A stretch of DNA of 64,000 nt, taken from NCBI GenBank assembly GCA_963758295.1, contig CAVWUU010000004.1, positions 928,001 to 992,000 of the forward strand. Direction: 5' to 3'. Of the stretch, positions 52,491-58,346 are shown piece after piece. The position numbers and the translations under genes are program-made. The notes below the pieces were generated by a model. That model ran no database searches, was not told the DNA's origin, and saw only the letters and a program-made list of their open reading frames with translations. This DNA is from Candidatus Eremiobacteria bacterium (GTDB taxonomy: Bacteria; Vulcanimicrobiota; Vulcanimicrobiia; Vulcanimicrobiales; Vulcanimicrobiaceae). How positions within the stretch are numbered: position 1 is the first letter of the stretch; each line of letters begins with the position of its first letter.

Positions 52491-53567
52491 ATGAAATTGC
52501 GCCGACTCATCGCTCTACCGATACTGTTCTGCTTGGCATCATCAGTGTCGGCTTGCAGCGGCCCTGACGGTGGCGGCTCACCGCATGCTCTGCCCGATGG
52601 AAGTATCGCATATCGTCTAGGATCGCAGAAGCTCGCGAATGACAGCCACCTTTCCAGGAATACGTGGACCGAGCGAGCCTCAGATCCGATTGGGAGTACC
52701 GATCTTTCAGTTGGCGTGTCCGGCCATATTCTTTACGCGGTAGGCGGTGGTGGAAATGCGCCGTGCTGCCAACCGACATCGTGGCTAAACACCTTGGAAG
52801 CCTACAATCCGACCACGAATAGCTGGCGCGTGCTAGCGCCGATGCCAACTCCTCGTTGTTGCGCAGCAATGGCCGTGGATCGCGATGTCTTATATGTCGT
52901 CGGCGGCCAAGGAAACCAAAATATTGTTGGGACGGTTGAGGCCTACAACTCATGGACAAATAAGTGGACTACGAAGGCTCCGATGCCGACACCGCGATAC
53001 GCACTTGGCGTTGGATTCGTCCATGGCATCCTCTACGCCGTGGGTGGCGTACAACCGGGACCGGTAACTCCTGCGCTAGGGACGACCGTTGAAGCTTATG
53101 ATCCAAAGGCTAATAGTTGGATGACAAAAGCGCCGTTGCCGGTAGGCCGGACCAATTTACAGGTAGCTGTAGTTCACGAAGTTCTTTACGTGTTCGGTGG
53201 CGTTGGCGGCCCCAACGGTACGGCAGGTGAAAACACCGTTGAAGCTTATGAGCCGCGCACGGACACGTGGACTGCGAAGGCGCAAATGCCGTATTCCATA
53301 TCAAACGGCGCCGCGGCAGTAGTCGACGGAAAGATCTACGTCGCCGGAGGATGTACGGTCAGCAGCAGCACGCCGGCGCAGCAGTCTTGTTACAGCGACA
53401 TGGTGGAATCGTACGATCCGAAGCTCGACAAATGGAGCACGTTGAAACCGATGCTTATTGGAGTTGATGGTCCAGCGGGCGGATCGGTTGATGGGATTTT
53501 TTACGTCGTAGGCGGCCAAAATGCTCGCTTTATGAACATTGGTACAGTCCAGGCCTTTCGACCTTAA
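52491..53567 (+). CDS. Kelch-repeat lipoprotein
   Basis: Lipobox VSAC; six repeats of LY.VGG...VEAY.P.TN.W...APMP.PR. Confidence 0.9.
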   Translation: MKLRRLIALPILFCLASSVSACSGPDGGGSPHALPDGSIAYRLGSQKLANDSHLSRNTWTERASDPIGSTDLSVGVSGHILYAVGGGGNAPCCQPTSWLNTLEAYNPTTNSWRVLAPMPTPRCCAAMAVDRDVLYVVGGQGNQNIVGTVEAYNSWTNKWTTKAPMPTPRYALGVGFVHGILYAVGGVQPGPVTPALGTTVEAYDPKANSWMTKAPLPVGRTNLQVAVVHEVLYVFGGVGGPNGTAGENTVEAYEPRTDTWTAKAQMPYSISNGAAAVVDGKIYVAGGCTVSSSTPAQQSCYSDMVESYDPKLDKWSTLKPMLIGVDGPAGGSVDGIFYVVGGQNARFMNIGTVQAFRP

Positions 53568-53641
53568 GAACCGCTGCATTACGCATCGGCTTTTACCAAG
53601 GTGCACAGGAAGCCGTCACAAGGTATTGGGCGTTTTGATTA

Positions 53642-53976
53642 TGGGATGACCGGGACTCGAACCCGGACGCCCTTACGGGCTGCAGATTTTCGCACCACTA
53701 TAGCTTTCGCTACCGCAATCACGTTTGTGGTCCGGACTGTGCCATGACCATGCGGATTCAGTTCTAAGTGCTGAACCCGGTTAGGCCGCGCCCGTCCAGT
53801 CTCTACACTTTCTCGAGGTCGCTTTCACGAATCGAGCTTAGCTCGGCGTTGTCATGCGCGCGAAGCGCGCGAAGAGTTCACCGACTTTGAGCGCATCCCG
53901 CACGGCGTTTCCTATTCGTGCGGCTCAAGGAGTGTTACCTCAAGTCTGCTGTGTCTACCGATTCCACCATCATCCC
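53642..53976 (-). tRNA. tRNA-Leu(UAA), split by a group I intron (exons 53942-53976 and 53642-53690)
   Basis: 5' exon GGGATGATGGTGGAATCGGTAGACACAGCAGACTT plus 3' exon AAAATCTGCAGCCCGTAAGGGCGTCCGGGTTCGAGTCCCGGTCATCCCA give an 84-nt tRNA with long variable arm; CCA not encoded. Confidence 0.93.
53691..53941 (-). ncRNA. Group I self-splicing intron (IC3-like), 251 nt, no ORF
   Basis: Inserted after U34; TTGAGCC guide (U.G at the 5' splice site); GTAGAGACTGGACGG and ACAGTCC core (P7); terminal G. Confidence 0.9.
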
Positions 53977-53982
53977 ACGTAG

Positions 53983-54225
53983 CTACTGTCGATAGTGTTC
54001 GACAGTATCTGCCGAGCGCATATGCGCAATGTTTGGATCTTGTCCTGCATCGCGGCGCGCGCGGCGTTGACGAAGCAGATCCCAAAAACGATCGAGCTGC
54101 ACTTGAATGTCTTCTAAGCGCTTGCGGTCTTCTTCATTCAAATGTCCGCCGTCGCCGTGTTCGAGCAGGCGATGCTCTTCAGCCACGAGGCCCTCGATGT
54201 GGGTGTTGATCTGGTTGTCGTCCAT
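53983..54225 (-). CDS. DUF2630 family protein
   Basis: LVAEEHRL..LDRFWDLLRQRRARRDAGQDP..R..TVEHYRQ. Confidence 0.85.
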   Translation of the reverse strand: MDDNQINTHIEGLVAEEHRLLEHGDGGHLNEEDRKRLEDIQVQLDRFWDLLRQRRARRDAGQDPNIAHMRSADTVEHYRQ

Positions 54226-54313
54226 GGGTCTACCTCCGGGAAGCTGTTACTGCCATCCTTCCCCTACCCACCGCACGGGCGGGTGGCGCTAGGCTGCTAA
54301 AAAATCGGCAGCG

Positions 54314-54904
54314 GTGGGTATCCAAGTCACCGTGCAACAAGAGGATACCCCTTCAAAACCTTTCATCGTCGGCTTGATGGGCCATGCGTATGCAAGTGAC
54401 AACCCGCCGGCCTGGTGGAGAACCTTTGTATTCCGCGTTTTGACCGGTCGTCAGCTGAGCGTCTTCCTTTATCTCTTAACGTGTATGGCAGCTCACGACG
54501 AGTGCAGCCCGACGACCGAAGAGATTCGTTCCTTCGTGGGCCTGAACCGGCCGAACATGGTGTTCGAGGCACTCGACACGCTGGACGATTACGGCTTCAT
54601 CGTGCGCCACCGCCGCGTGCTGCCTGGCTCGAGCGGCCGCCGGAACCTCTATCAACGCCCGCCCTGGGAGTACACGATTCTACGCTTGATGCAGTTGGGA
54701 ATTCTGGACGAACGCCTGCGCGTGCGACACTTGGAATCAACGTACACGCCGGAGATCATGCACGAACTGGACGCAGCGGTGCGCGGCTTGTTGGGGGATC
54801 GTTACGAGAAGTATCTCTCGGACGACGACGCGGGGCGCCGCAAAGTGCTGATGGCGGCGCTCGCCGCAAAATCACAGGACCACCCGCACCTGCGGCCGGT
54901 CTAG
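54314..54904 (+). CDS. Winged-helix-like hypothetical protein
   Basis: LSVFLYL..SPTTEEIR..VFEALDTLDDYGFI..RNLY. Confidence 0.65.
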   Translation: MGIQVTVQQEDTPSKPFIVGLMGHAYASDNPPAWWRTFVFRVLTGRQLSVFLYLLTCMAAHDECSPTTEEIRSFVGLNRPNMVFEALDTLDDYGFIVRHRRVLPGSSGRRNLYQRPPWEYTILRLMQLGILDERLRVRHLESTYTPEIMHELDAAVRGLLGDRYEKYLSDDDAGRRKVLMAALAAKSQDHPHLRPV

Positions 54905-56529: not shown

Positions 56530-57498
56530 TTAGATCGCTTCCCGGCGCTGGTTTTGCCATGCGCCTAGCCGCCGATACTTCGAATAGCGCGCCTCCTGCA
56601 ACGCATCCGGCGTGAATGCCGAAAGCCGTTGCAATGAGGACCGGATTGCATCTAACACTTTTGCGATCGTGGCCGAACTTTCGCGATGCGCACCGCCGAG
56701 CGGTTCGGGAACGATTTCGTCGATAATTCCGAAGCGCTCCAGGTCCTCAGCGGTAAGTTTCAACCGCGCTGCCGCCTCTTCCGCCTTTGCCGCGTCACCC
56801 CACAGAATCGCGGCGCAGCCTTCGGGCGAAGCAACGGAGTACACCGAGTGCTCCAGCATGATGACGTGGTCGGCAATCCCAAGGGCAAGCGCGCCGCCGG
56901 AGCCGCCTTCACCGATGATCGTCGCGATGATCGGGACCCGCGCTTCCGTGAATTCGTAGAGGCAGCTTGCGATCGCCTCGGATTGCGCGTGCTCTTCCGA
57001 CGTGATGCCGGGATCGGCGCCCTTGGTGTCCACGAACGTAATTATCGGCACGCCGAGGCGAGAAGCCATATGTGCCAGACGCTTTACTTTCCGATAACCC
57101 TCGGGCGTTACCATTCCGAAGTTGCGGCGCAGGTTTTCTTTCGTATCGCGGCCGCGCTGTTGCGCGATCGCCATCACCGGCCGCCCCGCCAGCAGGGCGA
57201 AGCCGCCGACAATCGCGGGATCGTCGCGCATGAACCGGTCGCCGTGGAGTTCGTCGAACCGGTCGAGCTGCGAGATGTAATCGAGCGAGGTCGGCCGGTT
57301 GGGATGGCGCGCCATGTGCACCTTCTCCCACGGCGTTAGCGATCCAAAGACCTCGCGAAGTATCTCTTGATACTTCTGCTCGAGGCCGGTAATTTCGACC
57401 GACATGTCCACCGGCTGGCTCGCGTTGACGGCGCGCAGTTCGGCGATGCGGCGCTCGAGTTCTAAGAGACCCTTCTCGCGTTCGACGATCACGTTCAT
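56530..57498 (-). CDS. accA: Acetyl-CoA carboxylase carboxyltransferase alpha
   Basis: ARHPNRP, ELHGDR, RNFGM.PEGYRK, IGEGGSGGALA, YSVASPEGCAAILW. Confidence 0.96.
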   Translation of the reverse strand: MNVIVEREKGLLELERRIAELRAVNASQPVDMSVEITGLEQKYQEILREVFGSLTPWEKVHMARHPNRPTSLDYISQLDRFDELHGDRFMRDDPAIVGGFALLAGRPVMAIAQQRGRDTKENLRRNFGMVTPEGYRKVKRLAHMASRLGVPIITFVDTKGADPGITSEEHAQSEAIASCLYEFTEARVPIIATIIGEGGSGGALALGIADHVIMLEHSVYSVASPEGCAAILWGDAAKAEEAAARLKLTAEDLERFGIIDEIVPEPLGGAHRESSATIAKVLDAIRSSLQRLSAFTPDALQEARYSKYRRLGAWQNQRREAI

Positions 57499-58346
57499 GC
57501 GAGCACCTTCACGGATCCGCCGACGTATTCCAACAGGCGCACGATCGTAGCTTTGAGCTCGTGGCGGTCGACGACCATATCGATGTGTCCCTTCTCGAGC
57601 AGAAATTCCGCCGTTTGGAACTGATCGGGGAGTTTCTGACGGATGGTCTGCTCGATCACGCGGCGGCCCGCGAAGCCGATCATCGCGCGAGGTTCGGAAA
57701 TGATGACGTCGGACTCGAAGGCGAAGGACGCCGAAACGCCGCCCGTCGTCGGATCGGTAAGGACGGTCACGAACATGTTCCCGTCGCGCATGAAGCGATT
57801 CACGGCGGCGGTGGTCTTGGCCATCTGCATGAGCGCGTACATGCCTTCTTCCATGCGGGCGCCGCCCGAAGCGGTGAAGATGATGCACGGGATGGCGCGT
57901 TTCTGCGCTTCTTCTAAGAGTAAGGTTATGCGCTCGCCCACGACGGTGCCCATCGTGCCGCCGCGGAAGTGGAAGTCCATCACGCCGAGCGCGACTTCAT
58001 GGCCACCGATCTGTCCCAGGCCGCAGACCACGCCTTCGGACATGCCGCTCTTCTCTTTGTCGCCCGCAATCTTTACCGGATACGTCTTCTTGTCCACCCA
58101 GCCGAGCGGGTCTCCCGGCTGCACGTCTGCGCCGATCTCAACAAAATCGCCGTCGATCAACGAACTGATGCGGTCGTACGCCGCCATGCGGAAATGGTGG
58201 CCGCACTTCGTGCAGACGTAAAGATTTGCGGCGAGGTCGCGCCGGTACAGCACCTCGCTGCACTTGGGACACTTGCTCCAAAGTGCGGCATCGCGGGCGT
58301 CGGCGTTCTTGCTGCGACGGATGCGCAGCCATTCAGGAACGGCCAC
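57495..58346 (-). CDS. accD: Acetyl-CoA carboxylase carboxyltransferase beta
   Basis: WSKCPKC..CTKCGHH zinc finger, GGTMGTVVGE, SGGARMEEG, PTTGGVSASFA, GFAGRRVIEQT. Confidence 0.96.
   Translation of the reverse strand: MAVPEWLRIRRSKNADARDAALWSKCPKCSEVLYRRDLAANLYVCTKCGHHFRMAAYDRISSLIDGDFVEIGADVQPGDPLGWVDKKTYPVKIAGDKEKSGMSEGVVCGLGQIGGHEVALGVMDFHFRGGTMGTVVGERITLLLEEAQKRAIPCIIFTASGGARMEEGMYALMQMAKTTAAVNRFMRDGNMFVTVLTDPTTGGVSASFAFESDVIISEPRAMIGFAGRRVIEQTIRQKLPDQFQTAEFLLEKGHIDMVVDRHELKATIVRLLEYVGGSVKVLA

Follow-up and report, generated by a model that had tools for sequence, protein, structure and literature searches.

The stretch analysed here (the window) comprises 64,000 nucleotides of a Candidatus Eremiobacteria genome (contig CAVWUU010000004.1, positions 928,001 to 992,000). 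On its minus strand, at 53976..53642, it holds a tRNA-Leu(UAA) gene whose anticodon is interrupted by a group I intron. When introns were allowed, ARAGORN returned the gene in one call, as tRNA-Leu(taa) with an intron of 251 nt at 'gactt-Intron-aaaat', that is, between U34 and A35. The tRNA is of type II. Its 5′ half ends in ...GCAGACUU and its 3′ half begins with AAAAUCUGC..., and the joined exons give the anticodon arm GCAGA-CUUAAAA-UCUGC with the anticodon UAA. G1 of the tRNA lies at 53976 and the discriminator A at 53642; CCA is not encoded. The gene is made of three parts:

53942..53976, minus strand: 5′ exon of 35 nt (tRNA nt 1-35), with the acceptor 5′ strand, D arm, 5′ half of the anticodon stem and C32 U33 U34 (ARAGORN and sequence)
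53691..53941, minus strand: group I intron of 251 nt, free of open reading frames (ORFs), from its first base G (53941) to its terminal omega-G (53691) (ARAGORN, profile, covariance model and comparative structure)
53642..53690, minus strand: 3′ exon of 49 nt, with A35 A36, the 3′ half of the anticodon arm, long variable arm, T arm, acceptor 3′ strand and discriminator A (ARAGORN and sequence)

The columns of the 5′ exon are invariant or covarying among 28 relatives. An ORF scan for a homing endonuclease found no ORF of at least 60 amino acids overlapping the intron, and with the threshold at 20 amino acids it returned seven mechanical ORFs of 21-57 amino acids, which leave no room for such an enzyme. 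A sequence-only reading of this DNA had given the coordinates of the gene, the length of the insert, a TTGAGCC guide and the terminal G, and ARAGORN with introns and the sequence agree with it on every one of these. Its warning that standard tRNA finders may miss the gene was equally well founded: both ARAGORN in default mode and Rfam at gathering scores miss the split tRNA-Leu, their sole call in the 64-kb window being the same tRNA-Asn.

The insert is a group I intron

Introns from outside the lineage were gathered through a 17-nt core motif, which the window also matches, and two models were built on them. The first, an nhmmer profile, was built on 36 tRNA-Leu(UAA) introns from Pseudomonadota, Acidobacteriota, Bacteroidota, Cyanobacteriota and further lineages, with five loci of the present type excluded. 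It matches 53694-53929 on the minus strand (E 4.7e-30), and in a search of the 3.03-Mb genome this is its only notable match (E 2.2e-28). A covariance model, R1, made from the P3-P7 cores of 26 introns of other phyla with the RNAalifold consensus as structure, has a sole match in the window, at 53726-53899 on the minus strand, covering model positions 1-154 of 154 (102 bits, E 2.5e-23). Chance does not account for these matches.

Run by itself on 28 pre-tRNAs from the own lineage, RNAalifold recovers the arms of the tRNA as well as P1, P2, P3, P4, P5, P8, P9 and P9a, and 26 of the 83 pairs are compensatory. The whole P1-P9 structure, with the P7 pseudoknot, was counted on a MAFFT alignment of 74 introns (38 of the own lineage and 36 others). 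In this alignment 94.6% of the 3861 cells pair, as compared with 30.6-40.9% when the partners are slid by 1-3 columns; both sides change in 36 of the 54 pairs, and none of 500 shuffles reaches any of the five measures. By its structure the insert is a group I intron: its P3-P8 core, with the P3/P7 pseudoknot, is kept by compensatory changes, its 5′ splice site has a U.G pair, and its last base is G. An ORF-free group I intron at U^AA of tRNA-Leu(UAA), as had been read from the letters, is what ARAGORN, the profile, the covariance model and the fold counts all find.

The helices are given below, the window coordinate being 53942 minus the intron nucleotide number:

53924..53944, minus strand: P1, exon CUU (53944..53942) and intron nt 1-4 with nt 12-18, the internal guide holding UUGAG (74-intron pair count)
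53898..53923, minus strand: P2, nt 19-25 with 38-44, tipped by G30-C35 and a GAAA loop, nt 31-34 (pair count, RNAalifold)
53889..53894, minus strand: 5′ strand of P3, nt 48-53, followed by J3/4, AAA at 53888..53886 (pair count)
53843..53884, minus strand: P4 (nt 58-63 with 94-99), P5 (67-68 with 89-90) and a lineage-specific GC hairpin, P5a (72-86) (pair count; P5a by eye)
53812..53836, minus strand: P6, nt 106-110 with 126-130, and P6a closing a GAAA loop, nt 112-123 (pair count)
53797..53803, minus strand: 5′ strand of P7, G139, bulged A140 and G141 to G145, inside the invariant GUAGAGACU (pair count)
53788..53793, minus strand: 3′ strand of P3, nt 149-154, forming the P3/P7 pseudoknot (pair count)
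53746..53787, minus strand: P8, its base nt 155-158 with 193-196 and a 9-bp distal stem, nt 163-171 with 181-189 (pair count)
53734..53739, minus strand: 3′ strand of P7, nt 203-208, CAGUCC (pair count)
53694..53731, minus strand: P9 (nt 211-215 with 244-248) around P9a (229-233 with 238-242), with a GAAA loop, 234-237 (pair count)

The TTGAGCC of the sequence-only reading corresponds to intron nt 14-20, where UUGAG pairs with the exon CUU and the intron GA, so that U(-1) faces G16. In the 74 introns, the C-G pair of P1 is kept in 74 of 74, the U-A pair in 72 (the other two have U.G) and the splice-site U.G in all 74, while the distal pairs covary. In the window this 5′ splice-site wobble joins U 53942 with G 53926 (alignment columns 6 and 64), and the terminal G at 53691 falls in an invariant column (G257 of the first row). 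P2 changes on both sides in six of its seven pairs, is recovered unaided by RNAalifold, and has an invariant GGAAAC in the 28 relatives.

In the core of the 74 introns, pairing is complete for P3 (100% of cells, four of six pairs compensatory), for P4 and P5 (100%, with three of six and two of two pairs compensatory) and for P7 (100%, one of six pairs with changes on both sides). One pair of P5 is U-A in 37 sequences, C-G in 31 and G-C in 6, and the last pair of P7 is G-C in 39, A-U in 22, U-A in 7 and C-G in 6. By analogy, we take the G141-C207 pair beside the bulged A to be the G-binding pair. P6 is 91% paired, with all five pairs compensatory; the base of P8 is 99.7% paired, with changes on both sides in two of four pairs, and its distal stem covaries in the 28 relatives; P9 and P9a have compensatory changes in 5/5 and 4/5 pairs. 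The base of P8 also bears a CCUAA...AUGG motif that resembles a tetraloop receptor, and we presume, again by analogy, that it serves as one, L2 contacting P8 and L9 contacting P5. Conserved GAAA loops, the CCUAA...AUGG motif and a P5 with a short hairpin only are the features that relate to a putative IC3 architecture, the IC3 label itself being that of Williams 2020 (bioRxiv 10.1101/2020.01.27.920355).

Introns at the same site in other bacteria

Of the first 120 loci examined in the core-motif scan, no fewer than 41 proved to be tRNA-Leu(UAA) genes split at this position. By record name, 16 of these 41 belong to Pseudomonadota, 7 to Acidobacteriota, 5 to Cyanobacteriota and 4 to Bacteroidota, and one each to a Chloroflexota-labelled record, Binatota and Bdellovibrionota; another has no phylum name and falls in the cyanobacterial clade. 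The remaining five are of the present type (two records named Vulcanimicrobiota, one named Eremiobacteraeota and two under other names). The idea that this classic cyanobacterial and plastid position is occupied only sporadically elsewhere did not hold, as 35 of the 41 loci come from records that are not named cyanobacteria and lie outside the cyanobacterial clade. A gamma-proteobacterial tRNA-Leu intron was also reportedly described in the Journal of Bacteriology in 2002. In a review, tRNA group I introns are viewed as mostly cyanobacterial, apart from a few in alpha- and beta-proteobacteria (PMC4033280). A survey across 80413 bacterial assemblies has mapped 5292 intron-split tRNA genes, the rate among metagenomic assemblies of unnamed phyla being 0.49 such genes per genome, and lists Leu.3Ug as one of four classical IC3 classes (Williams 2020, bioRxiv 10.1101/2020.01.27.920355). 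Our literature search found no publication linking the phylum (Eremiobacterota, WPS-2) with group I introns.

Judged from its sequence and structure, the present intron is homologous to the other members of Leu.3Ug, with which it also shares the U34^A35 insertion. The likeness extends to the gene and borders (CUU/intron/AAAA), the U at -1, the G at omega and a small, ORF-free insert that is detected with the intron mode of ARAGORN and poorly served by Rfam Intron_gpI. It differs from the class in being a feature of a whole class of Vulcanimicrobiota, with an intron subfamily of its own. With the cyanobacterial and plastid tRNA-Leu(UAA) intron (the Anabaena and Nostoc type; PMC4476775, and reportedly Paquin et al. 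1997) it shares the insertion site, the UUGAG guide with its U.G pair, the set of helices and a patchy presence with intronless alleles among close relatives. The differences lie in the host, the intron clade, the response to the Rfam model RF00028 (which gives four cyanobacterial copies 65-86 bits and the present intron no score), several core pairs that are swapped (the last pair of P7 is C-G there and G-C here) and the P6 extensions of the Nostoc type, which are absent here.

The other obvious comparison is the intron of the Azoarcus tRNA-Ile(CAU), of subgroup IC3, reportedly described by Tanner and Cech in 1996 and by Reinhold-Hurek and Shub in 1992 and reportedly the subject of a cryo-EM paper (PMC13168695). 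We take both to be alike in being small and G+C-rich, with GAAA loops on P2 and P9, a receptor-like P8 motif and the conserved GUAGAGACU core. They differ in that the Azoarcus intron sits in another tRNA and after the anticodon, whereas the present one lies inside it, and in that the latter, of 251 nt, has a longer P8 and P5a.

Distribution within the phylum

A BLAST search with the intron found it in 166 of 401 genomes sampled from the phylum (a tally that takes in G000, the present genome, and G359), in two families. The family labelled f1 accounts for 150 of 296 genomes and f3, of the same class, for 15 of 30, while 19 other families have none in 74 genomes; 47 of 116 genera carry it. All 30 of the best loci are tRNA-Leu(taa) genes with an intron of 218-285 nt at the same site, and so are all ten loci retrieved from f3. 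Four of the f3 loci (L155, L156, L160 and L163, genus g77) are called tRNA-Trp(cca) with a shifted intron by ARAGORN -i; this misreading arises because their P1 has only about 4 bp (CUU|CCAAUUGGAG), and the actual borders are the usual CUU/.../AAAA.

The R1 model, which is more sensitive and was run on 151 genomes, matches in 36 of 71 genomes of f1, 6 of 9 of f3 and 4 of 70 of other families. The matches retrieved from the other families lie in other tRNA genes, not in tRNA-Leu(UAA). As an observation apart, R1 introns elsewhere (L190-L196, assigned by ARAGORN and by reading the borders) appear to interrupt tRNA-Met(CAU)-type genes in G006, G071 and G134, tRNA-Tyr(GUA) in G013, tRNA-Asn(GUU) in G004 and G013 and tRNA-Thr(CGU) in G009, and two f3 genomes have a second tRNA intron in addition to the one in tRNA-Leu.

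Genomes without the intron often hold an uninterrupted tRNA-Leu(UAA). With such a gene as query (from the relative G049), about 117 of the 150 listed matches span the whole query (hand count; the tally includes G233, G238 and G248), and the 18 matches retrieved, with identities as low as 77%, are all plain tRNA-Leu(taa). Five genomes (G325, G186, G268, G160 and G294, with ARAGORN confirming the first two) match a split as well as an unsplit gene; these may be mixed bins or may carry two real copies.

Decoding of UUA

ARAGORN detects 45 tRNAs in this genome. For Leu, the anticodons cag, caa, tag and gag are represented, and the sole taa is that of the split gene. Under standard wobble rules the anticodon CAA reads UUG only, so UUA needs UAA. 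The codon occurs 2863 times in 1591 ORFs of at least 300 codons, that is, 3.8 times per 1000 codons and in 4.3% of Leu codons. BLAST with the G049 gene found no uninterrupted tRNA-Leu(UAA) in four single-contig, intron-bearing relatives (G045, G136, G143 and G145). Because the taa anticodon is found nowhere else, UUA is in use and these four relatives have no uninterrupted copy, the split gene is very probably functional and spliced. The sequence-only reading had proposed that decoding of UUA depends on splicing, and this is most likely so, as no second tRNA-Leu(UAA) is found in the assembled 3.03 Mb (82% complete). A bolder reading, which we hold to be unlikely, is that, since UUA is a minor codon and the only visible tRNA for it needs guanosine-dependent splicing, splicing could gate UUA decoding.

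The same genome has a tRNA-SeC(tca) at G000:C1:541859-541952, and the organism therefore probably makes selenoproteins.

Host and neighbouring genes

The assembly comprises 3.03 Mb in 6 contigs, with 60.4% G+C and a completeness of 82%, and the window lies within a contig of 1.4 Mb. The neighbours of the split gene are ordinary chromosomal genes, coding for a DUF2630 protein, a Kelch-repeat protein, Ppx/GppA and AccA. Two of them have these coordinates:

53983..54225, minus strand: DUF2630 gene, whose stop codon lies 6 nt before base 1 of the tRNA (ORF list and domain search)
56530-57888, minus strand: AccA homologue of 452 amino acids, its Pfam ACCA domain preceded by about 130 residues

The DUF2630 gene is likely a co-transcribed neighbour of the split tRNA gene. 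A search for promoter-like and terminator-like sites within 53400-54500 returned none of either, and in the relative G049 (L153) a DUF2630 homologue lies upstream of the uninterrupted tRNA-Leu(UAA).

The AccA protein is 63-68% identical to those of three genomes named Candidatus Elarobacter, Candidatus Eremiobacteraeota and Vulcanimicrobiota, as compared with 43% for an Acidobacteriaceae genome and 40% for a Melainabacteria genome. In each of the three named relatives accA lies 2-7 kb from the genome's own split tRNA-Leu. Elarobacter is placed by NCBI in Vulcanimicrobiota, class Vulcanimicrobiia, a phylum that we take to be the same as Eremiobacterota/WPS-2. The similarity of AccA and the placement of Elarobacter therefore indicate that the host is not a cyanobacterium. 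Indeed, AccA identity and synteny group it with Vulcanimicrobiota, which upholds the earlier statement that the genome is non-cyanobacterial.

An island inserted at the 3′ end of the tRNA was considered and rejected, as the 23-nt tRNA 3′ end occurs only once in the window.

A dispersed repeat with the core CTGAGC-NN-GTCGAAGG is present in 137 copies across the 3.03-Mb genome, of which contig C4 carries 97, and often forms tandem arrays with a unit of 92 nt (for example L182, G000:C2:31450-31950, and L183, G000:C1:509300-509950). The window holds no copy of it, and Rfam gives weak, sub-threshold matches only. Four relatives have its core within a peripheral loop of their tRNA-Leu intron, in the P1 loop (L025), in P5 (L026 and L028) and in P9 (L027). 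The outer hairpins of the intron therefore seem to tolerate or attract the element.

Intron tree

A maximum-likelihood tree was built for 71 tRNA-Leu introns over about 220 alignable positions. The 35 introns of the present lineage form one clade (support 92/97, branch length 0.69), and six cyanobacterial-type introns form a separate one (support 100/100). Within the lineage, introns group by host genus, with 12 label changes, the hand-counted minimum for 13 genera. A tree constrained to unite the present lineage with the cyanobacterial introns is worse by 3.09 log-likelihood units (p-AU, from the approximately unbiased test, 0.475), so that, with deep branches this weak, common descent with the cyanobacterial intron is neither shown nor excluded. 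The intron falls outside the cyanobacterial and plastid trnL lineage by its host and by its clade, a sister relation between the two clades not being rejected. The sequence-only reading had expected the locus to bear on an ancient versus a horizontal origin of the trnL intron. It does so in that the lineage stands apart from the cyanobacterial clade, and the bearing is weak in that a joint clade is not rejected.

Genus-wise grouping together with intronless alleles fits a vertical descent of long standing, marked by many losses and perhaps by a small amount of transfer between members of the class. On this reading the intron has long been established in a single class of Vulcanimicrobiota, where it descended mainly by vertical inheritance and disappeared repeatedly, and this history forms one part of the overall reading weighed below.

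Discussion

The anatomy of the insert, its conserved fold, its kinship, its host lineage and its distribution are all shown by the analysis. We consider it highly likely, on these grounds, that the locus is a working tRNA-Leu(UAA) gene whose anticodon is split by a compact, ORF-free, IC3-like intron of the Leu.3Ug type, which has long resided in the class and has been passed on mostly by vertical descent. The precursor would arise by transcription of the minus strand, probably as one transcript with the DUF2630 gene that lies 6 nt upstream. The intron would fold into P1 to P9 with the P3/P7 pseudoknot, and its guide UUGAG would pair with the exon end CUU, so that a free guanosine bound in P7 could attack after U(-1) of the U.G pair. 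The terminal G (53691) would then take the same site, and the freed exon end would join the 3′ exon, restoring the anticodon UAA. Splicing of this kind is predicted to proceed free of protein.

A number of observations weigh against this reading. First of all, the Rfam group I model (RF00028, Intron_gpI; gathering score 50 bits) has no match at E<=10 on 601 bases, on the whole genome or on locus L001. The same whole-genome search is positive in 8 of 14 control genomes. The model scores 65-86 bits on the four cyanobacterial tRNA-Leu introns, 51-56 bits on three other-phylum introns (two of Acidobacteriota tRNA-Leu and one of cyanobacterial tRNA-Met), 44.9 bits on a Phenylobacterium intron and 32.1 bits (E 5e-5) on L111, a close relative of the present intron. 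None of its 12 seed sequences is bacterial (Williams 2020, bioRxiv 10.1101/2020.01.27.920355), and because the model has no bacterial seed, we regard the miss as a sensitivity gap and not as a negative result. The sequence-only reading had named the lack of a group I model hit as the outcome that would speak against an intron; for RF00028 this is formally the case, but the covariance model from other phyla does match.

Other points on that side concern the comparative evidence. The scores of the profile and of R1 are partly obtained by construction, because the 17-nt motif that selected the outside loci is common to the window. The slid control favours the proposed structure, because this was derived from the present sequence, and the relatives in the 74-intron count share kinship, so that they are not independent. 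The fold of the single sequence is unexceptional (z -1.42) and adds no support, as is expected because the RNA is pseudoknotted. In the tree, three f1 introns (genera g34 and g53) lie among those of f3, family labels changing twice against a minimum of one, so that some transfer within the class is possible. A second tRNA-Leu(UAA) may exist, the genome being 82% complete. Finally, the 20 sequencing runs listed as matching 53500-54300 are all of soil or rhizosphere DNA, with no RNA run among them, and the best contains 0.23 of the sampled words.

The alternative that survives best is that the intron, although real, does not catalyse its own excision in the cell and would depend on a protein or chaperone of the host for both folding and splicing, as is the case for many plastid trnL introns. 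It is favoured by the lack of any RF00028 score, when the cyanobacterial introns are readily scored, and by the lineage-specific extensions on P8 and P5. On the other hand, all core helices and joining segments are kept, with P3, P4, P5 and P7 fully paired in the 74 introns, the intron has no maturase ORF, and the GAAA loops on P2 and P9 are conserved together with the receptor-like motif of P8. In small Azoarcus-type ribozymes, P2 and P9 GAAA loops and the P8 receptor are the contacts of self-folding. We hold protein-dependent splicing to be improbable.

A recent horizontal acquisition, from cyanobacteria or from another phylum, is very improbable. It could explain why presence varies within genera (42 of 80 genomes in g4 and 21 of 33 in g2) and why five genomes match both a split and an unsplit gene. 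It sits poorly, however, with a lineage that forms a single clade on a long branch apart from the cyanobacterial one and groups by host genus, with a locus and neighbours (DUF2630, AccA) that are syntenic in relatives, with an intron that codes for no homing endonuclease and with a window that lacks any island-marking repeat of the tRNA 3′ end. That the tRNA gene is a decaying pseudogene and its intron dead, as the unencoded CCA and the lack of a promoter-like site within 53400-54500 might suggest, deserves hardly any credence given exons and a core conserved with compensatory changes across two families, and a sole tRNA-Leu(UAA) in a genome where UUA is regularly used.

Returning to the working split gene, the sole visible tRNA-Leu(UAA) of a soil bacterium from a little-studied phylum, its intron is genuine and well conserved and adds a lineage-wide subfamily to the known Leu.3Ug class; the intron tree does not settle the origin of the trnL intron. 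One extension, which we deem unlikely, is that the intron has been in the class since its common ancestor and descends, together with the cyanobacterial one, from an early bacterial tRNA-Leu intron. If this were true, the 'cyanobacterial' intron would be one survivor of an older and once widespread bacterial intron.

Because default tRNA finders and Rfam miss the gene, genomes of this phylum appear unable to read UUA, and the intron, present in 166 of the 401 genomes of our sample, needs to be taken into account whenever tRNAs are tallied or codon usage is interpreted in Vulcanimicrobiota. To the debate on its origin the finding adds a class-wide, mostly vertical lineage outside cyanobacteria, the roughly 220 alignable positions being too few to resolve the deep branches. 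For ribozyme work, it offers dozens of natural variants, compact and G+C-rich, of 211-285 nt and with swapped peripheral hairpins.

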